64,000 nt of DNA from Malacoraja senta (taxonomy: Eukaryota): positions 5,892,001 to 5,956,000 of the forward strand of contig CM075995.1 of assembly GCA_038087875.1 (NCBI GenBank). Reading direction: 5' to 3'. Positions 4,264 to 61,608 of the stretch are shown one piece after another; positions within the stretch are counted from its first letter, which is position 1, and each line of letters begins with the position of its first letter. Both the position numbers and the translations under genes were made by a program. The notes beneath the pieces were generated by a model. That model saw only the letters and a list, made by a program, of their open reading frames with translations, was not told where the DNA came from and did not search any database.

Positions 4264-4425
4264 CGTTGTGTTGCGGCTGTCCAAATAACTGAAGCCTTAC
4301 ACCATGATAAAGGTCCAAAGACTTTATTAACGACATAGCACAGGTAACTTCATGCTAGCACGTTTTTCTAATAATGCGGGAGCCAGGCAGGGAGGGTTAC
4401 TGTAAAGCTAGTGGGCGTAACTACA
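4264..4425 (-). repeat. 5' LTR of Gypsy 1 (~160 bp)
   Basis: Minus strand starts TGTAGTTACG, contains AATAAA and ends ...ACACAACG directly before the PBS. Confidence 0.7.
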
Positions 4426-7665: not shown

Positions 7666-7980
7666 AATGGTTGGGGGGAGCGACTCAAATAGAGAATGCT
7701 ATTAGACAGTGTGTGAGGCAGGAGGCAGAGAAGGAAAGCACTCAGACCCAACATGTAGGGGGGAAAGAAGAAAACAATAATAAACAGAGAATAAGAGGTG
7801 GTGGGGTTCTTAAATGGGTGAGCAGAGAAATAGGGGGTGTAAAATGCGGGCGGAAGCAATAGGTAGTAAGGTGAAAAGTAAAAGTGGCAGGCAGACAAAT
7901 CCAGGGCAAAAATCAAAAGGGCCACTTTTCAACATAATTGTATAAGGGGTAAGAGCGTTGTAAAAACAAGCCTGAAGGCT

Positions 7981-10780
7981 TTGTGTCTCAATGCAAGGAG
8001 CATTCGTAATAAGGTGGATGAGTTGTACGTGCAGATAGCAATTAATGATTATGATATAGTTGGGATCACGGAGACATGGCTCCAGGGTGACCAAGGCTGG
8101 GAGCTGAACATCCAGGGATATTCAATATTCAGGAGGGATAGAGAGAAAGGAAAAGGAGGTGGGGTAGCATTGCTGGTTAGAGAGGAGATTAACGCAGTGG
8201 AAAGGAAGGACATTAGCTTGGAGGATGTGGAATCGGTATGGGTAGAGCTGCGAAACACTAAGGGGCAGAAAACGCTGGTGGGTGTTGTGTACAGGCCACC
8301 TAGCAGTAGTAGTGAAGTTGGGGATGGCATCAAACAGGAAATTAGAAATGCGTGCAACAAAGGCAAAACAGTTATAATGGGTGACTTCAATCTACATATA
8401 GATTGGGTGAATCAAATTGGCAGGGGTGCTGAGGAAGAGGAATTCTTGGAATGTATGCGGGATAGTTATCTAAACCAACATGTAGAGGAACCAACGAGAG
8501 AGCAAGCTATTCTAGACTGGGTATTGAGAAATGAGGAAGGGTTAGTTAGCAGTCTTGCTGTGCGTGCCCCCTTGGCAAGAGTGACCATAATATGGTTGAG
8601 TTCTTCATTAGGATGGAGAGTGACATTGTTAATTCATAAACAACGGTTCTGAACTTAAAGAAAGGTAACTTTGAGGGTATGAGACGTGAATTGGCCAAGA
8701 TTGACTGGCAATTAGTTCTAAAAGGGTTGACGGTGGATATGCAATGGAAGGCATTTAAAGACTGCATGGATGAACTACAAAAATTGTTCATCCCAGTTTG
8801 GCAAAAGAATAAATCAGGGAAGGTAGTGCATCCGTGGATAACAAGGGAAATCAGGGATAGTATCAAAGCAAAAGATGATGCGTACAAATTAGCCAGAAAA
8901 AGCAGCATACCAGAGGACTGGGAGAAATTCAGAGACCAGCAGAGGAGGACAAAGGGCTTAATTAGGAAAGGGAAAATAGATTATGAAAGAAAACTGGCAG
9001 GGAACATAAAAACTGACTGCAAAAGTTTTTATAGATATGTGAAGAGAAAGAGATTAGTTAAAACAAATGTAGGTCCCTTGCAGTCAGAAACAGGTGAATT
9101 GATCATGGGGAACAAGGCTATGGCGGACCAATTGAATAACTACTTTGGTTCCGTCTTCACTAAGGAAGACATAAATAATCTGCCGGAAATAGCAGGGGGC
9201 CGCGGGTCAAAGGAGATGGAGGAACTGAGTGAAATCCAGGTTAGTCGGGAAGTGGTGTTGGGTAAATTGAATGGATTAAAGGCCGATAAATCACCAGGGC
9301 CAGATAGGCTGCATCCCAGAGTACTTAAGGAAGTAGCTCCAGAAATAGTGGATGCATTAGTGATAATTTTTCAAAACTCTTTAGATTCTGGAGTAGTTCC
9401 TGAGGATTGGAGGGTAGCAAACGTAACCCCACTTTTTAAGAAGGGAGAGAGAGAGAAAACGGGGAATTACAGACCAGTTAGTCTAACATCGGCAGTGGGG
9501 AAACTGCTAGAGTCAGTTATTAAAGATGGGATAGCAGCACATTTGGAAAGTGGTGAAATCATTGGACAAAGTCAGCATGGATTTATGAAAGGTAAATCGT
9601 GTCTGACGAATCTTATAGAATTTTTCGAGGATGTAACTAGTAGAGTGGATAGGGAGAACCAGTGGATGTGTTGTATCTGAACTTTCAGAAGGCTTTCGAC
9701 AAGGTACCACATAAGAGATTAGTATACAAACTTAAAGCACACGGTATTGGGGGTTCAGTATTGATGTGGATAGAGAACTGGCTGGCAAACAGGAAGCAAA
9801 GAGTAGGAGTAAACGGGTCCTTTTCACAATGGCAGGCAGTGACTAGTGGGGTACCGCAAGGTTCAGTGCTGGGACCCCAGCTATTTACAATTTATATTAA
9901 TGAACTGGATGAGGGAATTGAAGGCAACATCTCCAAGTTTGCGGATGACACTAAACTGGGGGGCAGTGTTAGCTGTGAGGAGGATGCTAGGAGACTGCAA
10001 GGTGACTTGGATAGGCTGGGTGAGTGGGCAAATGTTTGGCAGATGCAGTATAATGTGGATAAATGTGAGGTTATCCACTTTGGTGGCAAAAACAGGAAAG
10101 CAGACTATTATCTAAATGGTGGCCGATTAGGAAATGGGGAGATGCAACGAGACCTGGGTGTCATGGTACACCAGTCATTGAAAGTAGGCATGCAGGTGCA
10201 GCAGGCAGTGAAGAAAGCGAATGGTATGTTAGCTTCATAGCAAAAGGATTTGAGTATAGGAGCAGGGAGGTTCTACTGCAGTTGTACAGGGTCTTGGTGA
10301 GACCACACCTGGAGTATTGCGTACAGTTTTGGTCTCCAAATCTGAGGAAGGACATTATAGCCATAGAGGGAGTGCAGAGAAGGTTCACCAGACTGATTCC
10401 TGGGATGTCAGGACTATCATATGAAGAAAGACTGGATAGACTTGGCTTATACTCGCTAGAATTTAGGAGATTATTGAGAGGGGATCTTATAGAAACTGAC
10501 AAAATTCTTATGGGGTTGGACAGGCTAGATGCAGGAAGATTGTTCCCGATGTTGGGGAAGTCCAGGACAAGGGGGTCACAGCTTAAGGATAAGGGGGAAA
10601 TCCTTTAAGGCCGAGATGAGGAAAAACGTTTTCACACAGAGAGTGGTGAATCTCTGGAACTCTCTGCCACAGATGGTAGTTGAGGCCAGTTCATTGGCTA
10701 TATTTAAGAGGGAGTTAGATGTGGCCCTTGTGGCTAAAGTGATCAGGGGGTATGGAGAGAAGGCAGGTACGGGATACTGA
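7981..10780 (+). pseudogene. CR1 ORF2 (endonuclease + reverse transcriptase), several frameshifts
   Basis: Split across ORFs 7981-8652, 8679-9680, 9662-10240, 10282-10608 and 10529-10780. Confidence 0.92.
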
Positions 10781-18749: not shown

Positions 18750-19486
18750 GGGGCTTCGGGGAGATGGCCAGCCATGCCGGCAGTCTGTTCGTTTTTTCAC
18801 CTTTTTGTTATTTTAGCGTCTGTTAAAAGTTGGTTTTAATGTTCTTCGGTTTGTTTTATGTGGGGGAGGGGATCGGGGGAAACTTTTTTTCAATTTCTCA
18901 CCTTCCCGGAGATGTGATCAATTTTCGGATCACATTCTCCGGGCTCTGCGGCCTACCATCGATGGAGCTGGGAGCCGCATCGGATTGTCATGAGCCCAAC
19001 CGCGGGGCGCGGACTTAACGTCGGAGCGGATCCCTTGCCTGGGATCGCTCCCACCGCGGCCTGCGGACTTACCATCAAGGGCTCGCAGTCGCAGGAGAGG
19101 CTAGTCGGGAGCTCCAACTCCGCAGAAGGTTCGTCCAGCCCCGACGTGAGGTTCGATCGTCCAGCGCGGGGAGCTGACATCCCCCCCGATGCGGGAGTGG
19201 ATCGCCTCGACGCGGAGCGCCCGAACGCCGCCGACTACGGGAGTCAAACCCGTCCCGTCAACGGAGGGCTCGAGGCCCCCGACCGAGGAAGAACAAAAGG
19301 AAGAGACTTGAAATTTATTTCGCCTTCCATCAGTGAGGAATGTGTAGGAGTCACTGTGGTGGATGTTCATGTTAAAATGTGTTTTTGAGTGATCTGTTGC
19401 TTTTAATTGTATGACTGACCTGGCCAGTGAAATTCCTCGTATGCTGCAAAACATACTTGGCGAATAAAATCTGATTCTGATTCTGA
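18750..19486 (+). mobile_element. Non-coding SINE-like retroposon, copy B, inserted in a CR1 3' UTR
   Basis: Paralog of 4710-5427. Ends AATAAAATCTGATTCTGATTCTGA. The minus-strand CR1 3' UTR continues on both sides (18675-18749 and 19487-19830). Confidence 0.78.
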
Positions 19487-20092
19487 ACTGATCTCATCTG
19501 CCTGTACATGATCCATATCCCTCTATTCCCTGCTCTTCCATGTGCCTATCTAAAAGTCTCTTCAACATCACCATCTAAGCTGCCTCCACCACCACCCCAG
19601 ACAGCGCGTTCCAGACCCCCACCACCCTCTGTGCAAAAAAACTTGCCCCACACATCCATTAACCTTTCCCCCTCTCACCTTATAGCTATGCCCTCTAATG
19701 TTGAACATTCTCACCCTGGGAAAAAGGTTCTGACTGTCTACCATTTCCCTATATTATGCCTCATAATTTTATATACTTCCATAATTTTTCCCCTCAAGCT
19801 CTGACATTCCAGAGAAAACAATCCAAGTATAATTGGGGACATTTTATGGATGTTCCCGCTGCAATCCCATCGCAGTAGAGCGCCAACTGTATATATCTAT
19901 CGCATATAGTTATCACCACTATCGCTAGGACTCCTCATCTATTCTAGCTGGTGAACAGTAGGGATCACTCCCAACTACCAGTACAACTTAGTGGTGAGTA
20001 GGAATAGCTTTAAATTCTTACACTCCAAAGGAATTAAGTGATCAATGAACCTTGCAGGGCAACTTACCGTTGTAACAAAGAACATGGTCAGG

Positions 20093-26118: not shown

Positions 26119-28393
26119 CAACTTGACGCTCAACGCAGCAAAGTGTACATTTGCAGCATCCGAGATCAATTTTCTCGGGTACAGACTGGACAATGTCCAA
26201 GCCATCAACGCGCTCCCCACCCCAACTGACGTGAAAGAGTAAGCTTCATTTCTGGGCACCACCAACTTCTACCGCAAGTTCGTGCCGCAGTACGCGCAGA
26301 TCGCAGAATCGCTACAGAAGTTGCTACGGAAAGACACACAGTGGGAATGGACAAGTGAGCAGGACATCGCGTTCAACACGCTGAAAGACAAAATAGCATC
26401 TCCGCCTGTTCTCGCGCACTTCGACCCAAGTGCTGAAACGTATGTCACAACAGACGCTTCCTGTATCGCGATCGAAGCGGTGTTATCGCAGTGCATCGAT
26501 GCAAGCGAACAACCGATCGCATTTGTGTCCCGTCCCTTGACTGCAACCAAACGCAAGTACTGCACCAGGGAACGCGAAGCATTAGCGTGCATCTACGCGT
26601 GTGAACACTGGCACGTATACCTATACTCTCCGTACGGATCACCAAGCGCTGACTACGTTACTGGACATGTCAGGCTCACGACATCGCCCGCTCCGGATCT
26701 ACAGATGGTCCGATCGCCTTCATCAGTACAACTTCGAAGTTGAATACCTCGCAGGTTCATGCAATCGCATCGTAGACATGCTCAGTCGCGTCCCAACATG
26801 ACACCCACACGTACACGCGATAGCGACGCTTCAAGCAACATCGACTACTACATTCTCGCGGTGATTTCGCACGCGATGACGAATCTAGTAACGCGGGAAG
26901 AGCTGAAAGCAGAGTCGACAGCTGACAGCACACTGCAAACCATCTGCCAGTATCTCGACTGACTGGCCCAAGGAGATAGCAGACGACTTTGTTCCGTACC
27001 ACCGGGTACGCCACGAACTGGCAGTGTTTGACGATACATGTGTCACGCGCGGAACTCGAGAGGTTATACCCAAATCACTGCAACACCGCGTGTTACAACT
27101 GGCACATGAAGGACACCCGGGCGTTGATAAGATGAAACAATGGTGTCGCGAGGCAGTGTGGTGGCCAGCAATAGATCGTCGCGTAGATTTAGTCAAAAAT
27201 TGTGAAGCATGCACAATTAGCAAGAAGTCAACAAAACCACGTCCTGCTCCTCTTCAGCCAATCCCATGGCCGGCCAAACCATGGAAGCACTTGCAAGTCG
27301 ACATCTTCGGAGAGGTGCAAGCTATGCCAAGAAGCCAGCGGTTTCTACTTGTAGTACATGATCTCCACAGCAAGTGGCCTGAGATCGCAACTACTTCTTC
27401 TGTCACGACAAGCTCGATCATCGCGATTCTCGAAAAGCTGTTTACCAAGTGGGGACTGCCGGAGGTCATAACGACAGACAACAGCCCACAGTTCATATCT
27501 GAACAGTTCTCCACCTTCCTTGCGAGGTACGACATTCAACATCAGCGGACGTCACGATACAACCCCCAATTGAACGGCGGGGTTGAACGATTCAATTGCG
27601 TGATCAAAGAAAGCATAAAAGCGAGCATGTCGGAGGGGAAAACATTCGAACAGTCAATCCATATCCTCCTCCGATCCTACAGATCCACACCGCACAAGCT
27701 GACTGGGAAAACGCCAGCAGAGCTGATGATAGGGCGAAAAACATGCGAACGAAACTGAATGCTCTTCAATCAACATCGCACCCAAATCCAGACACAAAAG
27801 CGAGGGCGGAAACGATAGCACACAGACAAGCGAAAGGGAAAGCGTACTGTGATGCCAAACGCAGAGTACGAGTGCCGCGGTTCAAGGTCAGTGACTGGGT
27901 ACGAATCAGCCGCCCAAACAGACAGCATAAGCTCGCAAGCGCACTCTCAAAGCCAATACAGATCAAATGGTGACTCGGCAAGAACGTGTACCTCCTCCAA
28001 GACGACACCAGACGGAGGCGAGGCGTCTTATCGCAAGCAGACAGAGACAGGAAGAAGACGAACCGGACGCTTTTCCTTTCCCGATATCCAGTCAAGACAG
28101 CGATCGCGGTCAGCATACAGCAGAGCAGCCAAATCCCAGCTTGACTCTCTCAGCGACAGAAGAGGAGACCTCAGTATCTGCAAGATTTTCAGCTGTGAAG
28201 CTATAAACAGTTATATTCACTGAGCAGTTATTTTTTTGGACTTCCGTTTATTAATAGAGGACATGAAATTTGAAAGGACGTTGGACTGATTTCATATGGA
28301 CTTATATTTGATTTGATAACTGGACTTAAATGATCACCTTCATTTACAAGGAGGGGTAAATATGTTGTGTCTGGGTAAGACTGTCCGTACAGT

Positions 28394-40333: not shown

Positions 40334-43015
40334 ATATGGCGACACGCCCAGATATGGCGACATTCCCAGATATGGCGACACGCCTGGATATGGCGACATT
40401 CCCGGATATGGCGACACCCCCCGATATGGCGAGTTACCCGGGTATGGCGACATTCCCTGATATGGCGACATTCCCGGATATGACGACATTCCCGGATATG
40501 ACGACATTCCCGGATATGGCGACTTGCCCGGATATGGCGACTTGCCCGGATAGGGCGACACGCCCAGATATGGCGACACGCCCGGATATGGCGACACGTC
40601 CGGATATGGAGACACACCCAGATATGGCAACTTACCCGGGTATGGCGACATTCCCGGATATGGCGACGCCCGGATATTGCGAACTACCCTGGTATGGCGA
40701 CATTCACGGATATGGCGACATTCACGGATATGGCGACATTCACGGATATGGCGACATTTCCGGATCTGACGACATTCCCAGATATGGCGACATACCCGGA
40801 TATGGCCACATCCCCGGATATGGCGACATTCCCGGATATGGCGACATTCCCGGATATGGCGACAATCCCTGATATGGTGACACGCCCGCATATGGGAACA
40901 TGCCTGGATATGGCAACTTACTCGGATATGGCGACTTTCACGGATATGGCGACACGCCCGGATATGGCGACAATACCGGATATGGCGACATGCCAGGATA
41001 TGGCGACATACCCATATATGGCGACTTGCCGGGATATGGCGACAGGCCCGGATATGGCGACACGCCCGCATATGGCGACATTCCCGGATATGGCGACATT
41101 CCCGGATATGGCGACATTGCCGGATATGGCAACATTGCCGGATGTGGCGACATTCCCGGATATGGCGACATTCCCGGATATGGCGATGCCCAGATATGGC
41201 GACATTCCCGGATATGGCGACATTCCCGGATATGGCGACATGCCCGGATATGGCGACATGCCCGGATATGCTGACATTCCCGGATATGGCGACATCCCCG
41301 GATATGGTGACATTCCCGGATATGGTGACATTCCCAGATATGGCGACCATCCCTGATATGGTGACACGCCCGGATATGGGATCATGCCTGGATATGGCGA
41401 CACGCCCGGATATGGCAACTTACCCGGATATGGCGACTTTCCCGGATATGGCAACATACCCGGATATAGCGACACGCCCGGTATGGTGACAGGCCCGGAT
41501 ATGGTGACACGCCCGGATATGGCGACACGCCCGGATATGGCGACATTCTTGGATATGGCGACACTCCCGGATATGGAGACTTACCCGGGTATGGCGACAT
41601 TCCCGGATATGGCGACATTACCGGATATGGCGACATTCCCGGATGTGGCGACATACCCGGATATGGCGACTTGCCCGGATATGGCGACACGCCCGGATAT
41701 GGCGACACGCCCGGACATGGCGACACGCCCAGATATGGCGACACGCCCGGATATGGCGACATTCCCGGATATGGCGACATTCCCGGGTATGGCGACATTC
41801 CCGGATATGGCGACATTCCCGGGTATGGCGACATTCCCGGATATGGCGACATTACCGGATATGGCGACATTCCCGGATATTGCGATATTGCCGGATATGG
41901 CGACATTCCCGGATGTGGCGACATTCCCGGATGTGGCGACATTCCCGGATGTGGCGACATTCCCGGATATGGCGACTTGCCCAGATATGGCGACATTCCC
42001 GGATATGGCGACATGCCCGGATATGGCAATATGCCCGGATATGCTGACATTCCCGGATATGGCGACATGCCCAGATATGGCGACATGCCCGGATATGGCG
42101 ACATTCCCGGATATGGCGCCATTCCCAGATATGGCGACATACCCAGATATGGTGACATTCCCGGATATGGCGACGTCCGGATATTGCGAACTACCCGACT
42201 ATGGCCACATTCCCGGATATGGCGATATTCCTGGATATGGCGACATTCCCGGATATGGCGACATTCCCGGATATGGCAACATTCCTGGTTATGGTGACAT
42301 TCCCGGATATGGCGACTTGCCTGGATATGGCAAAATTCCCGGATATAGCAACATTCCCAGATTTGGCGAAATTCCCGGATATCGCGACATGCCCAGATAT
42401 GGCGACATTCCCGGATATGGCGACAAGCCCGGATATGGCGCCATTCCCGGATATGGCGACATTCCCGGATGTGGCGACTTACCCGGATATGGCGACTTAC
42501 CCGATATGGCGATATTCCTGGATATGGCGACATTCCCGGATATGTCGACATTCCCGGATATGGCGACTTACCCGGATATGGCGACTTACCCGGATATGGC
42601 GACTTACCTGGATATTGCGAACTACCCGGGTATGGCGACATGCCCAGATATGGCGACATTGTCGGATATGGCGACATTGTCGGATATGGCGACATTCCCG
42701 GATGTGGCGACATTCCCGGATATGGCGACTTGCCCAGATATGGCGACATTCCCGGTTATGTCGACACGCCCGGATATGGCGACATTCCCGGATATGGCGA
42801 CATTCCCGGATATGGCGACTTTCCCGGATATGGCGACTTACCCGGATATGGCGACTTACCCGATATGGCGATATTCCCGGATATGGCAACATTCCCGGAT
42901 ATGTCGACATTCCCGGATATGGCGACTTACCCGGATATGGCGACTTACCCGGATATGGCGACTTACCCGGATATGGCGACTTACCTGGATATGGCGACTG
43001 GCCCGGATATGGCGA
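40334..43015. repeat. 18-bp tandem satellite, left arm (~150 units)
   Basis: Consensus GGATATGGCGACATTCCC with variants ...GACACGCCC, ...GACTTACCC and ...GACATGCCC. Confidence 0.98.
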
Positions 43016-43804
43016 TGAAAAAGTTACTTTTATAACTACTAAACCAGGTTCGCTTCTCAATAAACAGACACCACACAAACTGTTTGGTAGACCAGTTCAA
43101 AACTTTACTTAACATCGGCCGATGGAAGGGAGCGAGAATTCCAGCTAAGTGACCAATGTAGACACTCGACTGTCCTCGGTCCCCTTCTCTGAACAACAGA
43201 ATTACATCGCATTATATAGTGTTTCTTTGTCACATTAGCACATTCTACAGACATTAGTCATGGTCAGAGGTACAGGAAAAGGCATCACATCAAAGGCCTT
43301 TTGTTTACAGGTTATGATACACTAAAAACATTGGCCTTTTGTTTTAGGTCATTTTATCTTCAAAGAGATCTTTCGCTGTTTCCTCTCTGTCACTTGGTCC
43401 TTCATAACCATAGGCCATTTGTTTTATGGCATCTTATCTTCAAAGAGATCACCCTAGCTCTTTCGCTGTTTCCTCTCTGTCACTTGGTCCTTCATAAACA
43501 TAGGCCATTTGTTTTATGGCATCTTATCTTTCCACTTCCCTGGATCCTCTCTCATCACTTCGCCCCTCCTAAACATTGGTCATTTGGTTTACGGCATCTT
43601 ACTTCAAAGATGTGACTAGCTGTTTCTTTCTCTGTCACTTCCTCACTTGGGAGACAATGTTATGGTATTTATTATCTCAATACCCCAAAACCCGAGGCAA
43701 CTTAACTTGCCTTTCTGTATTATTCTACTGGAGAAAAGCCTGATTTGAGACTAAATATAAGCTGTAAGCTTTTCTTATATTTTTAACATAATTCAGCTTT
43801 ATCA
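43016..43804 (-). repeat. ERV 3' LTR (~789 bp)
   Basis: Direct repeat of 47725-48524. Preceded on the minus strand by the PPT AAAAGGATGGAA (43805-43816). Confidence 0.95.
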
Positions 43805-45299: not shown

Positions 45300-45976
45300 T
45301 ATCCTCATTTCTCCACCGAATTTGTCTTCATCCCCAATTTTTCTATAACATAGTTGCTTGTCAGAAAAAGGATTCCCCCGGGGTAATTTTGTTTTGCAAT
45401 GCCCCATAGGCTCTTTCGACCATCCCAGATGCCTGTGGGTGATGTACACAGTGAAATTGCTGTCGGATATAAAAATGTGTACATATTTCCTTATTAATAG
45501 TGGCAATAAAATGGGGACCATTGTCCAAGCTTATGACAGTAGGTAGGCCAAACCTGGGAATAACTTCCCTTAACACCAATGTTACTGTAGTCTCAGCAGT
45601 ATCATTAGTGGTTGGTAGAGCTTCAATCCACCTGCTAAATAAATCAAAAAATAACTAAGCAATATTTATAACACTGGGCCCTTGGCATTTCAATAAAATC
45701 AATCTGTATGCATTCAAACGGTCGTGATGGCATTGGTGTCACCCCTGAGGGTATCCTAATTGGTTTGCCTGGATTCTTTCGTTGGCAAATTTTACATTCA
45801 GAGGCCTGCTTCAGTGCCTCTTGCCGGATTTTTGGGTGCCACCACGTCTCTTTTGTCATCCTTATCATTCCATCCTTACCAGCATGGGTAAGTGAGTGAA
45901 TATATGTTAGTAAAACAGGTAAAAATGCATCAGATACACCAACTTGTCCAAGCGGGGTGAGCCGAATCAATGGCAC
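45300..45976 (-). pseudogene. pol: Retroviral integrase, frameshifted
   Basis: HSLTHAG...CKIC zinc-binding motif, IQIDFIEMP, IPRFGLPTVISLDNGPHF and HPQASGMVER. A detached C-terminal piece TAVKIEDHRRWIH lies at ~44080-44150. Confidence 0.88.
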
Positions 45977-46080
45977 AGCCCTCTTGTTTCCATAGTTATT
46001 TTTATATATGAGAGGCGTCCCTCTGTAATGTACATACCTCCCTCATGTTTGGCAGGACCGTTCTATTTGCTAGTATCTGT

Positions 46081-47723: not shown

Positions 47724-47724
47724 A

Positions 47725-48524
47725 TGAAAAAGTTACTTTTATAACTACTAAACCAGGTTCGCTTCTCAATAAACAGACACCACACAAACTGTTTGGTAGA
47801 CCAGTTTCAAAACTTTACTTAACATCGGCCGATGGAAGGGAGCGAGAATTCCAGCTAAGTGACCAACGTAGACACTCGACTGTCCTCGGTCCCCTTCTCT
47901 GAACAACAGAATTACATCGCATTATATAGTGTTTCTTTGTCACATTAGCACATTCCACAGACATTAGTCATGGTCAGAGGTACAGGAAAAGGCATCACAT
48001 CAAAGGCCTTTTGTTTACAGGTTATGATATACTAAAAACATTGGCCTTTTGTTTTAGGTCATTTTATCTTCAAAGAGATCACCCTAGCTCTTTCGCTGTT
48101 TCCTCTCTGTCACTTGGTCCTTCATAACCATAGGCCATTTGTTTTATGGCATCTTATCTTCAAAGAGATCACCCTAGCTCTTTCGCTGTTTCCTCTCTGT
48201 CACTTGGTCCTTCATAAACATAGGCCATTTGTTTTATGGCATCTTATCTTTCCACTTCCCTGGATCCTCTCTCATCACTTCGCCCCTCCTAAACATTGGT
48301 CATTTGGTTTACGGCATCTTACTTCAAAGATGTGACTAGCTGTTTCTTTCTCTGTCACTTCCTCACTTGGGAGACAATGTTATGGTATTTATTATCTCAA
48401 TACCCCAAAACCCGAGGCAACTTAACTTGCCTTTCTGTATTATTCTACTGGAGAAAAGCCTGATTTGAGACTAAATATAAGCTGTAAGCTTTTCTTATAT
48501 TTTTAACATAATTCAGCTTTATCA
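47725..48524 (-). repeat. ERV 5' LTR (~800 bp)
   Basis: Direct repeat of 43016-43804. Followed on the minus strand by the PBS. Confidence 0.95.
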
Positions 48525-51500
48525 GCGACATGCCCAGACATGGCGACTTACCCGGATATGGCGACACGCCCGGATATGGCGACACGCCCGGATATGGCGA
48601 CACGCCCGGATTTGGGGACATGCCCGGATATGGCGGCACGCCCGGATATGACGTCTTTCACGGATATGGCGACATACCTGGATATAGCGACACGCCCGGT
48701 ATGGTGACACGCCCGGATATGGTGACACGCCCGGATATGGCGACACGCCCGGATATGGCGACATTCTCGGATATGGCGACACCCCCGGATATGACGACTT
48801 ACCCGGGTATGGCAACATTCCCGGATATGGCGACATTCCCGGATATGGCGACATTCCCGGATATTGCGACACCCGGATATTGCGAACTACCCGGGTATGG
48901 CGACATTCCCAGATATGGCGACATTGTCGGATATGGCGACATTCCCGGATGTGGCGACATTCCCGGATATGGCGACATTCCTGGATACGGCGACTTGCCC
49001 AGTTATGGCGACATTCCCGGTTATGGCGACATGCCCGGATATGGCGACATGACCGGATATGCTGACATTCCCGGATATGGCGACATGCCCGAATACGGCG
49101 ACATTCCCGGATATGGCAACATTCCCGGATATGGCAACATTCCCGGATGTGGCGACATACCCAGATATGGCAACATTCCCGGATATGGCGACATTCCCGG
49201 ATATGGCGACATTCCCGGATATGGCGACATTCCCGGATATGGCGACATTACCGGATATGGCGACATTCCCGGATATGGCGACATATCCAGATATGACGAC
49301 TTGCCCGGATATGGCGACACGCCCGGATATGGCGACATGCCCTGATATGGCGACACGCCCGCATATGGCGACATTCCCGGATATGGCGACATTCCCGGAT
49401 ATGGCGACATTCCCGGATATGGCGACGTCCGGATATTGCGAACTACCCGGGTATGGCGACATTTCCGGATATGGCGACATTTCCGGATCTGACGACATTC
49501 CCGGATATGGCGACATACACGGCTATGGCCACATTCCCGGATATGGCGACATTCCCGGATATGGTGACATCCCCAGATATGTCGACATTCCCGGATATGG
49601 CGACATTCCTGGTTATGGCGACATTCACGGATATGGCGACTTGCCTGGATATGGCAAAATTCCCGAATATAGCAACATTCCCAGATTTGGCGACATTCCC
49701 GGATATGGCGACTTACCCGGATATGGCGACATTCCTAGATATGGTAACATTCCCGGATATGGCGGCGTACCTGGATATGGCGACATTCCCGGATATGGTG
49801 ACTTACCCGGATATGGCCACATTCCCAGATATGGCGACATTCCCGGATATGGCGACATGCCCGGATATGGCGACATTCCCGGATATCGCGACATTCCCGG
49901 ATATGGCGACTTACCCGGATATGGCGACTTACCCGGATATGGCGACTTACCCGGATATGGCGACCGGCCCGGATATGGCGACATGCCCAGATATGGCGAC
50001 TTACCCGGATATGGCGACACGCCCGGATATGGCGACACGCCCGGATATGGCGACACGCCCGGATATGACGACTTTCCCGGATATGGCGACATACCCGGAT
50101 ATAGCGACACGCCCGGTATGGTGACACGCCCGGATATGGCCACATTCCCAGATATGGCGACATTCACGGATATGGCGACACGCCCGGATATGGCGACATT
50201 CCCGGATATCGCGACATTCCCGGATATGGCGACATTTCCGGATCTGACGACATTCCCGGTATATGGCGACATACACGGCTATGGCTACATTCCTGGATAT
50301 GGCCACATTCCCGGATATGGCGACATTCCCGGATATGGTGACATTCCCGGATATGTCGACATTCCCGGATATGGCGACATTCCTGGTTTTGGCGACATTC
50401 ACGGATATGGTGACTTGCCTGGATATGGCAAAATTCCCGAATATAGCAACATTCCCAGATTTGGCGACATTCCCGGATATGGCGACTTACCCGGATATGG
50501 CGACATTCCTAGATATGGTAACATTCCCGGATATGGCGACGTACCTGGATATGGCGACATTCCCGGATATGGTGACTTACCCGGATATGGCCATATTCCC
50601 AGATATGGTGACATTCCCGGATATGGCGAGACGCCCGGATATGGCGACATTCCCGGATATCGCGACTTACCCGGATATGGCGACTTACCCGGATATGGCG
50701 ACTTACCCGGATATGGCGACCGGCCCGGATATGGCGACATGCCCAGATATGGCGACTTACCCGGATATGGCGACTTACCCGGATATGGCGACTTACCCGG
50801 ATATGGCGACCGGCCCGGATATGGCGACATGCCCAGATATGGCGACTTACCCGGATATGGCGACAGGCCCGGATATGGCGACACGCCCGGATATGGCGAC
50901 ACGCCCGGATATGACGACTTTCCCGGATATGGCGACATACCCGGATATAGCGACACGCCCGGTATGGTGACACGCCCGGATATGGGCACATTCCCAGATA
51001 TGGCGACATTCCCGGATATGGCGACACGCCCGGATATGGCGACATTCCCGGATATCGCGACATTCCCGGATATGGCGACTTACCCGGATATGGCGACTTA
51101 CCCGGATATGGCGACTTACCCGGATATGGCGACCGGCCCGGATATGGCGACATGCCCAGATATGGCGACTTACCCGGATATGGCGACAGGCCCGGATATG
51201 GCGACACGCCCGGATATGGCGACACGCCCGGATATGACTTTCACGGATATGGCGACATACCCGGATATAGCGACACGTCCGGTATGGTGACACGCCTGCA
51301 TATGGTGACACGCCCGGATATGGCGCCACGCCCGGATATGACGACTTTCCCGGATATGGCGACATACCCGGATATAGCGACACGCCCGGTATGGTGACAC
51401 GCCCGGATATGGTGACACACCCGGATATGGCGACACGCCCGGATATGGCGACATTCTCGGATATGGCAACACCCCCGGATATGGCGACTTACCCGGGTAT

Positions 51501-53264
51501 GGCGACATTCCTGGATATGGCGACATTACCGGATATGGCGACGCCCGGATATTGCGAACTACCCGGGTATGGCGACATTCCTGGATATGGCGACATTTCC
51601 GAATCTGGCGACATTCCCGGATATGGCGACATTCCCGGATATCGCGACATTCCCGGATATGGCGACATTTCCGGATCTGACGACATTCCCGGTATATGGC
51701 GACATACACGGCTATGGCGACATTCCCAGATATGGTGACATTCCCGGATATGGCGACATTCCTGGTTATGGCGACATTCACGGATATGGCGACTTGCCTG
51801 GATATGGCAAAATTCCCGAATATAGCAACATTCCCAGATTTGGCGACATTCCCGGATATGGCGACTTACCCGGATATGGCGACATTCCTAGATATGGTAA
51901 CATTCCCGGATATGGCGACGTACCTGGATATGGCAACATTCCCGGATATGGTGACTTACCCGGATATGGCCACATTCCCAGATACGGCGACATTCCCAGA
52001 TATGGCGACATTCCCGGATATGGCGAGACGCCCGGATATGGCGACATTCCCGGATATGGCGACATTCCCGGATATGGCGACTTACCCGGATATGGCGACT
52101 TACCCGGATATGGCGACTTACCCGGATATGGCGACACGCCCGGATATGGCGACACGCCCGGATATGACGACTTTCCCGGATATGGCGACATTCCCGGATA
52201 TAGCGACACGCCCGGTATGGTGACACGCCCGGATATGGCCACATTCCCAGATATGGCGACATTCCCGGATATGGCGACACGCCCGGATATGGCGACATTC
52301 CCGGATATGGCGACATTCCCGGATATGGCGACTTACCCGGATATGGCGACTTACCCGGATATGGCGACTTACCCGGATATGGCGACCGGCCCGGATATGG
52401 CGACATGCCCAGATATGGCGACTTACCCGGATATGTCGACAGGCCCGGATATGGCGACACGCTCGGATATGGCGACACGCCCGGATATGACGACTTTCAC
52501 GGATATGGCGACATGCCCGGATATAGCGACACGCCCGGTATGGTGACACGCCTGGATATGGTGACACGCCCGGATATGGCGCCACGCCCGGATATGACGA
52601 CTTTCCCGGATATGGCGACATACCCGGATATAGCGACACGCCCGGTATGGTGACACGCCCGGTATGGTGCCACGCCCGGATATGGTGACACACCCGGATA
52701 TGGCGACACGCCCGGATATGGCGACATTCTCGGATATGGCAACACCCCCGGATATGGCGACTTACCCGGGTATGGCGACATTCCTGGATATGGCGACATT
52801 ACTGGATATGGCGACGCCCGGATATTGCGAACTACCCGGGTATGGCGACATTCCTGGATATGGCGACATTTCCGGATCTGGCGACATTCCCGGATATGGC
52901 GACATTCCCGGATATGGAGACACTCCCTGATATGGTGACACGCCCGGATATTCAGACATGCCCGGATATGGCGACACGCCCGGATATGGCGACATTCCCG
53001 GATATGGCGACTTACCCGGATATGGCCACATTCCCAGATATGGCGACATTCCCGGATATGGCGACTTACCCAGATATGGCGACATCCCCGGATATGGCGA
53101 CATGCTCGGATATGGTGACATGCCCGGATATGGCGACACTCCCGGATATGGCGACACGCCCGGATCTAGCGACACGCCCAGATAGGGCGACACACCCGGA
53201 TATGGCGACACGCCCAGATATGGCGACATTCCCGGATATGGCGACACGCCCGGATATGGCGACA
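48525..53264. repeat. 18-bp tandem satellite, right arm (~260 units)
   Basis: Same unit and same diagnostic variants as the left arm. Confidence 0.98.
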
Positions 53265-54171
53265 ATTCATGTCGCCATTCCTTCACTCTTTGAACAGACT
53301 TTCTTATTTACAGTACAATTAACTGCATGTTGTAAGCCTGGACTTATTCCCCTCTCTGCCTCCAACTAATTGGCTGATAATTCTGTCAATACTCTTGTTT
53401 CTTTCAGCCACATGAACATGCGTTACTGTTCCACATCAGTAGGTGTCCTACATGCACCTTCCCATCATATTGCTGCATCTAGCCCCATATCAAGATGCAG
53501 TCCTTGTGGTAAACCTGTATTAACAAGCCTGAATTACACATTCTGACGTTGTGTCATTTGCCTTCGTACGCTTAATACAAACAGATAGAATTGGCAGTTT
53601 ATTTTATGAATGTGTGACTCAATTGAATAAAGGCAAATTACAATTAAACTGTTTCTGCTACATTGTGAGTGCAAGGTTCCTCATTTTACCAATGCACTCT
53701 GCTACCAATAATAATGCTGTTATGCAGAACTGCAGATGGCCAGTTATTTACCACGGTTGTTGAGCTTAAATTTTGAAAGCTATTGCAAACAATGTATAGC
53801 AGACAATACATCTAGTTTTTATCTTGTAGATCATATGCTCTATAAAACTCGGTTTCTCTGTCAGCTTTATTGGCGGTGTGCGTGATCTATTTACATGTTT
53901 TTTTCTTGCAAATTTCTAACAATTCTTAGTTTAAATAATGGGAACAGAATGTAGAACAGTACACCACAGGAACAGGCCCTTTGGCTCACTGTCAGTGTTG
54001 ACGATGCCAAGTTAAACTAATCTACTCTGCCTGCATGTGAACCATACCCCAACATATGCTGCACATACACTACCATATCTGACTCCACCACTATCCCTGA
54101 CATGGCATTCAAGGCACCCACCTCTCTGTGTAAAAACACTTGCCCGCACATCTATGTATATTCTTTTAAAA

Positions 54172-54244
54172 GTGTGTGTGTGTGTGTGTGTGTGCCCGCG
54201 CGCGCGCGCGCGTGCGTGCGTGCGTGCGTGTGCTTGCGTGTGTG
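54172..54244. repeat. (TG)n/(CG)n/(TGCG)n microsatellite in the Helitron head
   Basis: Directly visible alternating purine-pyrimidine tract. Confidence 0.9.
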
Positions 54245-56425
54245 AAAAGCTTATCCACGTCAACTCTGTCTATCCCTCTCATTAACCTTCTGCGCTCCAA
54301 AGAATAAAGCCCTAACTTGTTCAACCCTTCTCTGTAACTTAGTTGCTGAAACCCAGGCAACATTCTAGTAAATCCCCTCTGTACTCTCTCTATTTTGTTG
54401 ACATCCTTCCTATAATTAGGCGACCAAAATTGTACACAATACTCCAGAATTGGCCTCACCAATGCCTTGTACAATTTTAACATTACATCCCAACTTCTAT
54501 ACTCAATGCTCTGATTTATAAAAGCCAGCACACCAAAAGCTTTCTTTACCACCCTATCTACATGAGATTCCACTTTCAGGGAACTGTGCACAGTTATTCC
54601 AAGATCCCTCTGTTCACCTGCATTCTTCAATTCCCTACCATTTACCATGTACGTCCTATTTTGATTTGTCCTGCCAAGATGTAGCACCTCACACTTATCA
54701 GCATTAAACTCCATCTGCCATCTTTCAGCCCACTCTTCCAACCGGCATAAATCTCTCTGTAGACTTTGAAAATCTACTTCATTATCCACAGCCCCTCCTA
54801 TCTTAGTATCATCTGCATACTTACTAATCCAATTTACCACACCATCATCCAGATCATTGATGTACATGACAAACAACAGTGGACCCAACACAGATCCCTG
54901 TGGCACCCCACTAGTCACTGGCCTCCAACCTGACAAACAACCATCCACCATTACTCTCTGGCATCTCCCATTCAGCCACTGTTGAATCCATCTTGCTACT
55001 CCACCATTAATACCCAACCATTGAACCTTCTTAACCAACCTTCCGTGAGGAACCTTGTCAAATGCCTTACTGAAGTCCATATATACAACATCCATGGCTT
55101 TACCCTCATCAATTTCCCGACTAACCTCTTCAAAAAATTCCAGAAGATTAGTCAAACATGACCTTCCAGGCACAAATCCATGTTGACTGTTCCTAATCAG
55201 CCCCTGTTTATCCAGATGCTTATATATATTATCTCTAAGTATCCTTTCCATTAATGTGCCCACCACTGACGTCAAACTAACAGGTCTATAATTGCTAGGT
55301 TTATTCTTAGACCTCTTTTTAAACAATGGAACAACATGCGCAGTACGCCAATCCTCCGGCACTATTGCCGTTTCCAATGACATTTGAAATATTTCTGTCA
55401 TAGCCCCTGCTATTTCTACACTAACTTCCCTCAATGTCCTAGGGAATATCCTGTCCGGACCTGGAGACTTATCCACTTTTATATTTCTCAAAAGTGTCAG
55501 TACTTCCTCTTCTTTGAATCTCATAGTTTCCATAGCTACTGTACTTGTTTCCCTTACCTCACATAATTCAATATCCTTCTCCTTGGTGAATACCGAAGAA
55601 AAGAAATTGTTCAATATCTCCCCCATCTCTTTTTGGCTCTGCAGATAGCTGTCCACTCTCACTCTCTAATGGACCAATTTTATCCCTCGTTATCCTTTTG
55701 CTATTAATATAGCTGTAGAAACCCTTTGAATTTACTTTCACCTTACTTGCCAAAGCAACCTCATATCTTCTTTTAGCTTTTCTAATTTCTTTCTTAAGAC
55801 ACTTTTTACATTTTTTATACTCCTCAAGCACCTCATTTACTCCATGCTGCCTATAATGATTGTAGATCTCTCTCTTTTTCCGAACTAAGTGTCCAATTTC
55901 CCTTGAAAACCATGGCTCTTTCCAATTTTTACTATTTCCTTTCAACCGAACAGGGACATAAAGATTCTGTACTCTTAAAATTTCACCTTTAAATGTCCTC
56001 CATTTCTCTTCCACATCTTTCCCATAAAACAAACTGTCCCAATTTACTCATTTTAAATCCTTTCGCATCTCCTCAAAGTTAGCCTTTCTCCAATCAAAAA
56101 TCTCAACCCTAGGTCCAGTTCTGAACCTCTCCATAATGATATTGAAACTAATGGTATTGTGATCACTGGTCCCGAACTGTTCCCCAACGCATACCTCTGC
56201 CACCTGACCCGTCTCATTTCCTAACAGGAGGTCCAGCACCGCCCCTTCTCTAGTAGGTACTTCTATGTATTGCTGCAAAAAACTATCCTGCACACATTTT
56301 ACAAACTCCAACCCATCCAGCCCATTTACAGAATGTGTTTCCCAGTCTATGTGTGGAAAATTGAAATCTCCCACAATCACTACCTTGTGCTTACTACTAA
56401 TATCTGCAATCTCCTTACAGATATT
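54245..56425 (-). pseudogene. CR1 ORF2 fragment (end of APE through RT) inside the Helitron; no 3' UTR or tail
   Basis: ORFs 56048-56518, 55568-56032 and 54166-55662 ([14 protein letters not shown]). Confidence 0.9.
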
Positions 56426-56892
56426 ACTCATGTTACCCCTAAACTTCTGTCCCTTAATTCTCAAATCATGTCCTCTTGTTTGAATCTTCCCTACTCTCAA
56501 TGGAAAAAGCTTATCCACGTCAACTCTGTCAATCTCATCATTTTAAAGACCTCTATCCAAGTCCCCCCTTAACCTTCTGCGCTCCAAACAATAAAGATCT
56601 AACTTGTTCAACCTTTCTCTGTAACTTAGTTGCTGAAACCCAGGCAACATTCTAGTAAATCTCCTCTGTACTCTCTCTATTTTGTTGACATCCTTCCTAT
56701 AATTAGGCGACCAAAATTGTACTCCATACTCCAGAATTGGCCTCACCAATGCCTTGTACAATTTTAACATTACATCCCAACTTCTATATTCAATGCTCTG
56801 ATTTATAAAGGCCAGCACACCAAAAGCTTTCTTTACCACCCTATCTACATGAGATTCCACCTTCAGGAAACTATGCACAGTTATTCCTAGAT
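56426..56892 (-). pseudogene. Second, overlapping CR1 ORF2 C-terminal fragment inside the Helitron
   Basis: Repeats 54245-54605 (LGITVHS...ERRRLRGD) with point differences. No tail. Confidence 0.88.
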
Positions 56893-59397
56893 GGTTAGTG
56901 TGTGTGTGACGCGGCAGGCTGCTCCCCTGAATTCCATAGAGCTGCCGACAGCTTTTGTGCATGAGACGCGCACGCTTCATTTCCAGAACATTCTGAACGC
57001 GTGACGCACGGTTGCATTTCGCTCTCTGTCTCTCCCTCTCTCTCTGCCCCATCTTTCTCTCCCCCCTCTCCCTCTCCCCTCTCTTTCTCCCCCCTCTCCC
57101 CCACCCCCTGCCCTCCCCACCATCCCTCCCCTAAACCCCCTTCCCCCCCAACCCATCCCCTCCCCACCCTCCCTTCCTCCCCTCTCCCCCTTCCCTTCCC
57201 CCCCCTCTCACACCCCCTCCCTCTCTCTCTCCTCCCATCTCTCACACCCCTCCTCCCCCACCCTCCCCCCCTCACCCACCCTCCCTCACCTCCTCCCTCC
57301 ACCCCCTCTGTCTCTTGCCCTTCTGTCTCTGCCCCTTTCTCTCTGTCTCTCCCCATTCTCTCTCTGCCCTCATTCTCTACCCCCCCCCCTCTCCCTCTCT
57401 AGACGCGTCTGCGAGTTGGGGGCTATGCGTCAGTGGATAGGGCGGTTATGGGGTAAAAGGAGCAAATTAATAATATTAATATATCAAGGGGGGTAGTTAG
57501 CGCATGTGCGGGGGTAGTTAGTGTGTGTGACGCCGCATGCCGCCCCCCAGCCACCCCTCTCCCGCAACCACACGTTGGGGGAACAGACCCAACGGGTCTG
57601 CACTTGGTCTCGTATTCTTTTAAAACTCTGTGTGTGTGTGTGGGTGTACGGCATTTTGCTTTTGAAACGTATCTCCTCGAAAACCAGACGCAAAAACGCG
57701 GAGATTTTTACAATTTCGGTAGGGATTTAACATGTTCGGAAATCCACTCCTTGGTCAATTATTTCCCCAGATTTTGAATAAAATTGTTCACAAAACTCAA
57801 TTTTTAAAATATAAACACCGCTCACAGCTGCCGACATCACAATGCCCACATGCCCACCAATCCAGGCCCACCTGCGTCCTGGCCCCGCCCCCCGGCGCTA
57901 TGGATTAAAGGCGCAGAAATATCAAGAAAGTTCTGCAGAACAAAGATTCTACAGCTGCGTTCCACTACAGCTTCTTTGTTCTACAGATCTCGGGGCAGCG
58001 ACTCCTCACGCTCTGAACTTCTCCTCATAAGTTCCGCTGAACTTTCTCCTCACAGCCGGCGCAGCTCGCGAAGCCCCGCCCGCCTGCGAGCCCCTCCTAT
58101 CCCCTGCGCGCTCATTCCAGCTGTGGGTTTCCAGAGAGTCAGAAGCTGGTGCTTCTTTGCTGTGAACGCTCGCTCCTGGGCGAACGCGTCTTGCCTTAGC
58201 GGCTTTAAAGGGCTGTTGTCAGCTAGCAGTTATCAACGGCTGCGGGCGTCGCGAGGCCGAGTTACGTCAACACCCCCCCCCCTCGACGCGCGCTGGCATT
58301 TGGCTCTCTGACTCCTCCCTGTTCTGTGTTCCTTTCTGGGAACGAGCAAGTTCTGCAGATCCGGAGGACAGGCGAGATCCTGGGGCGGTGAAGAGGGGTA
58401 GTGGGGGGATTGAGGGAGAGGAGGGAGAGGGGGGAATGGGGGAGGTGAGGACGGAGAGTGTGGGAATAGAGGGAGAGGAGTGGGGGTGATAGGGAATGGG
58501 GAATAGATGGACTGCCCCCACCCCTCTCCCTCCCCCTCTCCGCCTCCCTCCCCACTCATCCCCCTCTCTACCCTAACCCTCTCCCCCTCCCTCCCCACAC
58601 TCCCCCCTCTCTCCCCTACCCCATCTCCCTCTCCCCCCTACCCCTCTCGCCCTCCCTCCCCACTCTCCCCCTCTCTCCCTCCCCACTCTTCCCCTCCCTC
58701 CACACTTCCCCCTCTCTCCCTACCCCACCCCCTCCTGCCCTCCCTCCGCCCCTCCACCCTCCCCTACCCCTTCCCTCCATCCCACCCTCCCTCCCCCCCC
58801 CACCTCTCCCCTCCCTTCCTCACCCCCTTCCCTTCCCCCTCTCAGCCCCCCTCTCTCCCCCCTCTCTCCTCCCATCTCTCTCACCCCTCCTCCCCCACCC
58901 TCCACCCCCTCTCCCTCTGTCTCTTGCCCTTCTGTCTCTGCCCCTTTCTCTCTGTCTCTCCCCCATTCTCTCTCTGTTCTCACTCTCTACCCCCTCCCTC
59001 TCTAGACGTGCCTGCGAGTTGGGGGCTATGCGTCAGTGGATAGGGCGGTTATGGGGTAAAAGGAGCAAATGAATAATATTAATATAATATCAAGGGAGGG
59101 TAGTTAGCGTGGGTGCGGGGGGTAGTTAGTGTGTGTGACGCCACATGCCGCCCCCACCCGCAACCACACGTTGGGGGAACAGACCCAACGGGTCTGCACT
59201 TGGTCTAGTCTCCATTAAACTTTGCCACTCTCACATTAAAGTTATAGGTAGACAAAAATGCTGGAGAAACTCAGCGGATGAGGCAGCATCTATGGAATGA
59301 AGGAATGGGTGACGTTTCGGGTGAGAGAGGAGGAGAATTTCTTCAAGGTAGGCATACCTTGAGGAATTTTGCAGTGGTTGCAGTGGAGTAGATGAAA

Positions 59398-59545
59398 TGT
59401 TTAAGAAAGAACTGCAGATGCTGGAAAAATCGAAGGTAGACTAAAATGCTGGATTCGCTCCATAGATGCTGCCTCACCCGCTGAGTTCCTCCAGCATTTT
59501 TGTCTACCTTCGATTTTTCCAGCATCTGCAGTTCTTTCTTAAATA
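59398..59545. mobile_element. Penelope-like terminal repeat in inverted configuration
   Basis: Arms of ~55 bp, TTTAAGAAAGAACTGCAGATGCTGGAAAAATCGAAGG..., arranged as an inverted repeat. Related dispersed fragments lie at ~18225, 20980, 29376, 44427, 59245, 61090, 62745 and 63095. Confidence 0.55.
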
Positions 59546-60390
59546 CCTTAAAGTTATGCTCTCTCGGCTTTGATATTTCCATCCTGAAACAAGATTCTGA
59601 TTGTTTACCCTATCTTTGCCTCTCATAATTTTATAAACCTCTATCAGGTCTTCCATCAGCCTCTGATTCTCCAGAAAAAACCCCAATCCAAGTTTGTTCA
59701 ACTTTCCCTTCTAAATATTGCCACCTAATCTAGGCAGCATTCTGACAAACCTCCTCTGCACCCTCTCAAAAGCCTCCACATCCTTCCTATAATAGGGACC
59801 AGAAACGCACACACTTCAAATGCAGCCTTACCAAAGTCTTATAAAGCTGCAACATGACTTCCTGACTCTTATATTCAATGCCATAACCATTGAAGGCAAG
59901 CATACCATACCCCTTCTTTACGACTATCTACTTGTGTTGCACTTTCTTGGAGGTAAGGACATGTATTTGAAGATCCTCTGTACAATGCTTTTTGGACTCT
60001 TGCCATTAACTGCATACTTTCACTTTTCATTCAACCGCCCAAAGTGCAACACCTCCATCTGCTATTTCTCCACCCATAGTTGATCTATATCCTGCTAAAA
60101 TACTTTGCTCACTGTCCGTAACTCCACCAATATCACAAACAACAGAGGTCCCAGCTTTGACCCCTGCGGAACTTCACCGGTCACAGGAATCTAGCCAGAA
60201 TTATACCCTTCCACCACAGTCTTCAATGATTAAGTCAGTTCTGAATCCAAATGACCAAGTCACCATGAATCCCATCCATCTTAATCTTCTGGATCAGCCT
60301 ATCACAAAGGACCTCATAAAATGCCTTACTAAAATCCATGTGGACAACATCCACTGCCCTGCCCTTATCGATCACCATCATTACATCCTC
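59546..60390 (-). mobile_element. Old, degenerate CR1 ORF2 fragments
   Basis: MNKLGLGFFLENQRLMEDLIEVYKIMRG, plus a decayed DFSKAF-like segment at ~60320. Confidence 0.65.
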
Positions 60391-61608
60391 AAATCACTAA
60401 CTCTCCAGAAAATGACTTATCATTGCAATGGCATTTGGAATATTCAGTTCCCTATTCAGATGGAAGAATCATTTTCAGATTGGGTACTGAAGCTGGAAAG
60501 CGTGAAAGAAAAAACACAATCTCTTCAGGATAGTCTATCGCATATCATCTAGTCATATAGATTCCCAATAGTAACTTGGATATTTACCTTGCTCAAATCT
60601 GAAGATCTAAATCCCCTTATTGAGCTGTCTTGAGAACGCTGTGCAAGATGACTTAACCTGGTGCGAGTCATATAGTTATACAGCGTGGAAAAAGCCCTTT
60701 CAGCCTGATTTGCCCATGTCTCCCGATATTCTGGAGATCATAGTCTTTTTGATACACATGAATTCATCAACAACCATGAGTTTTGTGACACATCAACAAA
60801 AAGAACTAGATTCGGTTTCCATTTGTAAAATCTTAGAAGGCAGCACTTCATTTCAAACATGGAATAGTGCAACACTGGACGGCACCTGTGGCCCACAATG
60901 TTACTGTGATATTTTCCCCAAATGGCATTGTGAGGGGCTAATGCATATTGATGTTCCATTTCCAGAGCCTGCACTCTGTAGGTAAGTCGATCATTATACA
61001 TTGGCCCGGGCACTAAAGATTCTCAAGCAGATGAATCTTCAAAGTGGAATTCCAATCCATTTTCACTTGAATCACTTTACATTTGGTGTCTGAAAATAAA
61101 ACAAAAAATGCTGGAAACACTCAGCATTTGTAGCAAAGAAACAGTTAGTGTTTTAGGTTGAAGACCCTTCAGCAGAAAATTAAAGTTGTCCACATTTTTA
61201 CAAACAAATGATTGCCTATCAATTTAAATTATTTTGTTAATAACAGGAGGGGCTGAGCTATAGGAAGAGGTTGGACAAGCTAGGACTATATTCGTGGGGT
61301 GCAGAAGGACGGTGGGGGTGATCTTATAGAGGTGTATAAGATCATGCAGGAAATAAATAGGGATGATTGTACAGAGTCATTTACCAAGGGTAGGGGAATC
61401 AAGAACCACAGGAAATAATAAAAGCACCAGAGGATATGGAAAGAGTTGCCAGAGGATCACAATTATGAGACACTTGGACAGGTACATGGATACGAAAGGT
61501 TTAGAGGGCTAAATGCATGCAGGTGGGACTAGAGTAGATGGGGCATCTTTGTTGACATTGGCAAGTTTGGCCGAAAGAATTGTTTCCATGCTGTATGACT
61601 ATGACACT

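Follow-up and report, generated by a model that had tools for sequence, protein, structure and literature searches.

Helitrons of the Helibat and Helraiser type have a 5′ TC and a 3′ CTAG, insert between A and T, and carry a hairpin 11–12 nt before the 3′ end (PMC4778049); in Helraiser, this hairpin is the main stop signal (PMC4778049). The same source documents, for Myotis, one Helitron's 5′ end abutting another's 3′ end (PMC4778049), and retroposition into Helitrons is documented for bats in a second source (PMC4224331). For bats, abutting Helitrons, retroposition into Helitrons, and compound Helitrons formed when an end is bypassed have all been published. CR1 copies, the second component of the locus described here, are usually truncated at the 5′ end (PMC4316615). 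The locus occupies 54151–59208 of the window (the whole analyzed stretch of 64,000 nucleotides), where two head-to-tail units, the first containing CR1 sequence, lie within an old CR1 copy (Table 1).

Table 1. Features of the composite locus and its flanks (positions in the window)
Feature	Position	Strand	Basis
Left flank, from the old host CR1: ORF2 3′ part (C-terminal codons) plus sequence downstream of it	53946..54150	-	alignment, translation
Unit 1 head: TC start, TATTCTTTTAAAA, (TG)n/(CG)n microsatellite	54151..54244	+	
Piece A: CR1 ORF2, end of endonuclease domain through RT	54245..56425	-	Pfam
Piece B: CR1 ORF2, C-terminal region, 5′-truncated	56426..56892	-	similarity to sister copy
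Unit 1 interior remnant	56893..57021	+	loose-end consensus
3′ region of unit 1, with C/T-rich tract and tail, an intact hairpin (57584–57600), and an imperfect end	57022..57612	+	
Unit 2: head, (TG)n, CpG-rich interior, C/T-rich tract, tail, hairpin (59180–59196), CTAG	57608..59208	+	
Right flank: old host CR1 ORF2 continues	59209..60393	-	alignment

Termini, class and abundance of the units

The outer ends are those given in the original prediction: TC at 54151, preceded by A, and a hairpin followed by CTAG at 59205–59208, which fits the CTRR of Helitron1 and is followed by T. The 17-nt palindrome CAGACCCAACGGGTCTG occurs in exactly two copies (the hairpins of Table 1), folds into a 7-bp stem, and is separated from the 3′ end by 12 nt in both; at up to 3 mismatches, there are four strand-matches against 0.16 expected (0/100 shuffles). 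The 13-mer TATTCTTTTAAAA is found at positions 54159 and 57613 only. There are no terminal inverted repeats (TIRs; 0 bp) at 54151–59208, and a Helitron domain is absent from the 60 window ORFs scanned. The assignment of both units to the non-autonomous Helitrons is supported by these features. A looser hairpin-end pattern also occurs at two unrelated minus-strand sites, and alone is not sufficient for a Helitron call.

The possibility of 3-bp sliding of the insertion boundary would suit an element that duplicates a 3-bp TCT target, or one that is Helentron/DINE-1-like, but membership of such a class is very improbable given the hairpin 12 nt before CTAG combined with the TC start, the second head that is likewise alignable from TCT, the absence of terminal or subterminal inverted repeats of at least 7 bp, and 0 matches in an Rfam scan of the window. 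Helentron/DINE-1 elements have subterminal inverted repeats and target the site between T and T; membership of this group was rejected on both counts, the target here lying between A and T. An LTR or TRIM reading of the repeated 3′ regions was also rejected: TG..CA ends are lacking, and other upstream modules share the hairpin end.

Contigs matching 57395–58385 number 3,821–8,356 per run in all four runs, which are labelled as four organisms, and this stretch is part of an abundant repeat family in those runs. Summed depth is maximal in the hairpin bin and 3.8–21.7x lower at 57667–57700, with loose ends around 57616–57653 left out of the contig comparison. Other upstream modules attach at 57573–57575, as expected for subfamilies with a common 3′ end. 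The family is dispersed and has a common 3′ end, its exact ends being known from this locus; exact tail patterns gave 0 matches in each of the metagenome, viral, and prokaryote collections.

Two abutting units in an old CR1 copy

The left flank is 74.5% identical to the CR1 copy at 19480–19652, and its translation shows ORF2 C-terminal motifs. The alignment of the left flank ends at 19652 and that of the right flank resumes at 19655 (= 59211), with two mismatched bases in between; the empty site rebuilt from the flanks has no net gain or loss of bases, and at this one locus the target lies between A and T. Such an A-T insertion without target site duplication (TSD) had been proposed for a CR1 3′ UTR. 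The A-T site stands, and alignment and translated motifs move the target into the last coding part of ORF2; the missing TSD is not provable from the locus, because the element and the right flank both open with TCT, so that the boundary can slide by 3 bp. Within the right flank lies a further insertion (59236–59557), an element of ~310 bp whose TSD is 10 bp long.

Two tails and two heads are present, in the head-to-tail layout predicted. The tails of the units are ~97% identical, and similarity between the units is limited to ~35 bp in the head and ~580 bp in the 3′ region; their interiors are unrelated, and that of unit 2 has no Pfam matches. The interior remnant of unit 1 opens with a third GTTAG(TG)nACGC copy, the other copies lying ~80 bp before tails. 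The two units are a heterodimer of different non-autonomous Helitrons. A rolling-circle concatemer was rejected because the unit interiors are unrelated; the junction is also imprecise, and tandem Helitron concatemers have precise CTAG-TC junctions (PMC4778049). Head 2 can be aligned to head 1 starting at its TC, with CG opposite TG, and starts either with TC at 57608 or with TATTC at 57613. Correspondingly, the internal end of unit 1 reads CTCG, or TCT common to the tail and head 2: the letters fit the suggestion of an internal CTAG mutated to CTCG, but 57608–57625 can also be read as a shared TCT plus a TC-starting head 2.

The units may have been joined elsewhere, with mutation or bypass of their internal CTAG, before the entire 5-kb element, with or without its CR1 cargo, moved here as the single unit of the original prediction; we give this a good deal less than an even chance. 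A prior abutting event would still be required, which adds one step, and the internal hairpin, of the kind that acts as the main stop signal in Helraiser, is intact. Furthermore, none of the 32 listed contig pieces (of 24,253) bridges the junction and depth drops beyond it, an observation of little weight given the small share of pieces listed and the repeat filter there. Joint movement is not needed, because insertion of unit 1 at the 5′ A-T of unit 2 gives the same precise empty site. Counting against such sequential insertion is the low prior of a precise insertion at one given A-T.

By sequential insertion, two copies, each from a different subfamily of a single abundant family of non-autonomous Helitron1-type elements, would have been mobilized in trans by a putative RepHel protein, via a nick at the 5′ TC, strand displacement, a pause at the hairpin, a nick at CTAG, and insertion at A-T. 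Most likely, unit 2 inserted first, into the end of the old CR1 ORF2, and unit 1 next, at the A-T recreated by the 5′ junction of unit 2. A few bases at the CTAG-TC junction would have been lost afterwards; slippage by 5 bp from one TCT triplet to another would yield the present letters, provided that head 2 belongs to the variant starting with TC, at 57608. Loss of the internal CTAG is predicted to favor read-through to 59208 upon remobilization.

Origin of the CR1 pieces in unit 1

Piece A matches RVT_1 (1e-33) and Exo_endo_phos_2 (5e-10) in Pfam, is truncated at both the 5′ and 3′ ends, and contains one stop, one frameshift, and a 30-bp deletion. Piece B is 93.5% identical to a tailed sister copy (over 3536–3749), which spans 3282–3749 and has an octamer microsatellite tail at 3282–3313. 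The 2.6 kb of CR1 ORF2 in two overlapping, tail-less pieces described in the original prediction amounts to 2648 bp, with an overlap of 324 ungapped bp (13 differences) and no octamer tail in either; measured against the sister copy, A stops about 300 bp and B 222 bp before the octamer tail. Both pieces are 49–58% identical to the near full-length element with an esterase ORF1 (6694–10768). CR1 relatives from metagenomes (50 loci, 33–61% identity) include none with Helitron modules.

A and B have a common orientation, and their missing 3′ ends adjoin each other. After the Helitron insertions, unit 1 would have taken two 5′-truncated CR1 copies via ordinary retrotransposition, first B and then A into the 3′ part of B. 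A single deletion, with an endpoint in the (TG)n microsatellite, would then have removed the tail of A, the remaining 3′ end of B, and the 5′ interior of unit 1. Because no intact copy of unit 1 was seen, we infer this lost Helitron interior and the lost CR1 tails. Capture is not required: with both pieces in one orientation and both tails missing from the same side, ordinary insertion plus one deletion suffices. Some event at the DNA level removed the tails, but the proposed gain of the CR1 pieces at that level is not needed.

DNA-level acquisition, whether a microsatellite break was repaired with filler DNA or a nested CR1 locus was captured by read-through, is rather unlikely, although several observations would suit it. 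Both pieces lack a tail, and among the CR1 C-terminal fragments here 12/17 reach the end of ORF2, such that 3′ loss is the minority state (5/17); the head/A junction shows imperfect microhomology (GTG.G) with the sister copy, which speaks for insertion plus deletion as well; A and B are equally decayed; and bat Helitrons carry retrotransposon sequence (PMC4224331). Against it, both missing tails are accounted for by one deletion, and the 5′ end of B lies directly against Helitron sequence with no host DNA in between. A protein search across the B-A junction, which is in frame, found that 0/7 matches (25 candidates) span both sides, a result of limited weight with so sparse a database. Counting against ordinary retrotransposition, neither A nor B retains a TSD at the locus. 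A literature search on CR1 5′ junction features found nothing.

Template switching occurs in LINEs, and A and B might be a single template-switched reverse transcript of which only the tail of A was lost later. Their same orientation without a spacer, their like decay, and four bases at the B-A junction that match neither the continuation of B nor the Q codon that should precede A would agree with this, but the switch would have to land inside a second RNA, 222 nt ahead of its tail, and we consider it quite improbable.

The differences between A and B look neutral (5/13 synonymous, p=0.12), which speaks for the insertion-plus-deletion account. Over 102 three-way columns, no derived change is common to A and B, likewise in its favor; A has one private change, and B has four; at the amino-acid level, polarized by eye against P0006 (with an indel), each has three, indicating about equal decay. 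A greater age of B, suggested by the four private changes vs. one, was rejected on the three vs. three amino-acid changes. Given this near-equal decay, the B-then-A order is unsupported, and a duplication that accompanied capture would be just as compatible. Overall, we infer the order of events, the single deletion, and the RepHel partner, and regard the whole account of abutting insertions, two CR1 insertions, and one deletion as having about an even chance of being correct.

Significance and comparison with known systems

The locus illustrates the building of composite repeats from abutting Helitrons and nested LINEs, although a single locus matters little. The more useful by-product is an abundant non-autonomous Helitron family that is common to several related organisms and worth curating; because vertebrate Helitron biology is known mostly from bats, the family merits a search for its RepHel partner. 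In the literature searched, a young, very abundant Helitron family is not described for this vertebrate lineage, probably the cartilaginous fishes. Recurrence of the cargo junctions would make this a traceable case of LINE ORF2 amplified by a Helitron; there is a slim chance that the 5-kb compound element with its nearly complete CR1 ORF2 is an amplified subfamily, and hence that LINE coding DNA spreads by rolling circle in this lineage.

Like CR1 clade LINEs (PMC4316615), the CR1 sequences here have an ORF2 with EN and RT, heavy 5′ truncation, and, in the sister copy, an octamer tail; unlike them, neither A nor B keeps its 3′ end. The HelibatN424 and N544 retrogenes (PMC4224331) are likewise 5′-truncated retroposed sequences in non-autonomous Helitrons, but keep their poly-A and TSDs and have amplified copies, whereas tails and TSDs are gone here. 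HelibatN539 (PMC4224331) is also a larger unit bracketed by one Helitron's 5′ end and another's 3′ end; its parental locus has been traced, and its elements are separated by captured host DNA, where this locus has no spacer. Composite FoHeli elements with multiple termini (PMC5148889) similarly arise by self-insertion beside the 5′ terminus, but are fungal non-canonical Helitrons with subterminal inverted repeats. In features rather than sequences, the locus also resembles Helibat1/HelibatN and Helraiser: although the host here is a CR1-rich vertebrate and the 60 window ORFs scanned include no autonomous partner, the locus shares with them TC, CTAG, the hairpin, the A-T target, the lack of TIRs, and the probable gain of new 3′ ends through insertion abutting another Helitron.

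Insert ends and target site

The composite Helitron arrangement is real: two non-autonomous units lie head (5' end) to tail (3' end) within an older CR1 (Table). The insert (5058 bp) begins with TC, preceded by A, and ends in CTAG, followed by T, with a 17-nt palindrome (7-bp stem) whose last base lies 12 nt before the 3' end, in agreement with the original prediction. This palindrome has exactly two sites in the window (four strand-matches vs. 0.16 expected), and the head 13-mer also occurs only twice there. The insert has no terminal or subterminal inverted repeats of at least 7 bp, and Rfam gave zero matches in the window.

Each flank was aligned on its own to a CR1 fragment (19480–19830); the left alignment stops at 19652 and the right picks up at 19653–19655, with two mismatched bases and zero net gain or loss. 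The flanks are thus contiguous, indicating a clean insertion in the older CR1 and bearing out their predicted rejoining at A and T. The target is not the 3' UTR, as had been proposed, but the last coding part of ORF2: when translated, both flanks show ORF2 C-terminal motifs, and in intact relatives the coding sequence goes on for ~55 codons past the insertion site. As TCT opens both the insert and the right flank, the boundary can be shifted by 3 bp, and thus the absence of a TSD is not provable from one locus.

Features of the window (window positions)
Feature	Position	Strand	Remarks
Insert	54151–59208		
Unit 1	54151–57612		
Unit 2	57608 or 57613–59208		
Palindrome	57584; 59180		
Head 13-mer	54159; 57613		
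CR1 piece A	54245–56425	-	
CR1 piece B	56426–56892	-	
Chimeric frame	56048–56542	-	164 codons between stops
Host CR1, left flank	53946–54150	-	
Host CR1, right flank	59209–60393	-	
Short repeat	59236–59557		~310 bp; 10-bp TSD; 144-bp palindrome (59400–59543); related pieces near 18.2, 21.0, 29.4 and 44.5 kb
Sister CR1 copy	3282–3749		
CR1-like element	6694–10768		Near full-length; GDSL esterase ORF1, EN/RT ORF2
LTR-retrotransposon pol fragments	25–2103; 26243–27758; 45644–46042		RT, RNase H, integrase domains
18-bp minisatellite	40334–43015		149.5 copies; open frames >200 codons
18-bp minisatellite	48525–53264		264.3 copies; open frames >200 codons
Repeated segments	43015–43804; 47724–48524		98% identical

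Internal junction and order of insertion

The units have in common a head of ~35 bp and a 3' region of ~580 bp, the tail of which shows 7 substitutions across 204 non-repetitive columns. Because their interiors differ, a rolling-circle concatemer, the junctions of which are described in parts of PMC4778049 and PMC5876387 as precise CTAG-to-TC joins of one element, was ruled out. An internal end with CTCG for CTAG, followed by a second head, survives as one reading of the junction (an A-to-C change plus loss of eight head bases), but not as the sole one: on the letters, a second head starting at TC 57608, alignable to the first with CG opposite TG, is equally good. A perfect junction losing five bases between two TCT triplets would yield the observed letters in one step.

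The 5' junction of any Helitron is itself an A–T site. Unit 1 may have inserted later, at that site in unit 2's 5' junction, which would leave the same outer empty site as the predicted movement of the dimer as one unit; we slightly favour sequential insertion. Joint transposition falls slightly behind, given that the internal hairpin is intact, the hairpin being the main terminator in Helraiser (PMC4778049, in part), and that, among the 32 contig pieces listed out of 24,253, none bridges the internal junction, which is weak evidence. Each step of either history is already published, in the sections cited: abutting insertion in Myotis (PMC4778049 section 12), compound transposition of HelibatN539 (PMC4224331 section 15), and self-insertion producing composite elements in Fusarium (part of PMC5148889).

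Origin of the CR1 cargo

Of the two CR1 pieces, A (2181 bp) starts in the endonuclease domain, continues through RT and carries a single stop, a single frameshift and a 30-bp deletion; B (467 bp) covers the ORF2 C-terminal region. As predicted, neither has a 3' tail: they end ~300 and 222 bp short, respectively, of the (CATATAAC)4 tail of the sister copy, a short, 5'-truncated member of the same young subfamily. The ORF2 end is reached by 12 of 17 CR1 C-terminal fragments in the window, and three of the five falling short belong to this locus; 3' loss being the minority state, a DNA-level event did occur. DNA-level acquisition, also predicted, does not follow. Because A and B are co-oriented and both lost their left ends, two ordinary 5'-truncated insertions into unit 1, plus one deletion into microsatellite that took both 3' ends, would explain everything. 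Truncation at the 5' end is the norm for CR1 (PMC4316615, in part), and there are documented cases of sequence retroposed into Helitrons and later amplified (PMC4224331 section 16).

Of 324 sites compared, 13 distinguish A from B (five synonymous; p = 0.12); the two pieces have no derived changes in common over 102 columns, and decay has gone about equally far in both, a pattern compatible with independent insertions. It fits duplication at capture as well, so capture is a live rival. Consistent with such a deletion, the head/A junction has imperfect microhomology to the sister copy, and a motif at 56892–56912, which elsewhere sits deep in the Helitron, suggests lost Helitron interior. None of seven protein matches crosses the junction of B and A (weak evidence), which is in frame. 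Relative to the Helitron target in the host CR1 (54150/59209), the 3' break of B (56426) is offset by ~6 nt in homologous coordinates, probably by coincidence.

Family abundance and affinities

Between 33 and 48% of sampled words of 57400–58400 were present in 20 of 21 listed runs (12 studies, 9 organism labels). Contigs from four of those runs were mapped to 57395–58385 only, one fifth of the insert; 3,821–8,356 fitted per run, covering 30 of 30 bins. In all four, summed contig depth, which is not copy number, was highest in the hairpin bin and 3.8–21.7 times lower at 57667–57700, and differing upstream sequences joined at 57573–57575; pieces near 57616–57653 were left out of the contig listing. 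This pattern fits an abundant family with one 3' end common to its subfamilies. The repeat content suggests a cartilaginous fish as host.

CpG observed/expected is 0.79–1.13 in Helitron modules vs. 0.22–0.49 in CR1 and flanks. The unit 2 interior (57648–58380; 0.97) has no Pfam matches and could be captured promoter-like DNA or merely young sequence. RepHel, the protein expected from an autonomous partner, was not found in the subset of 60 window ORFs scanned. The literature searched, including portions of PMC6817897, PMC4350176, PMC10468316 and PMC10115646, yielded no detailed account of this family or of chondrichthyan Helitrons, although Repbase, Dfam, subscription papers and genome-paper supplements may well list it. 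Judged by its sequence, the insert would work like a Helibat-type non-autonomous Helitron1, with which it has its terminal hallmarks in common.
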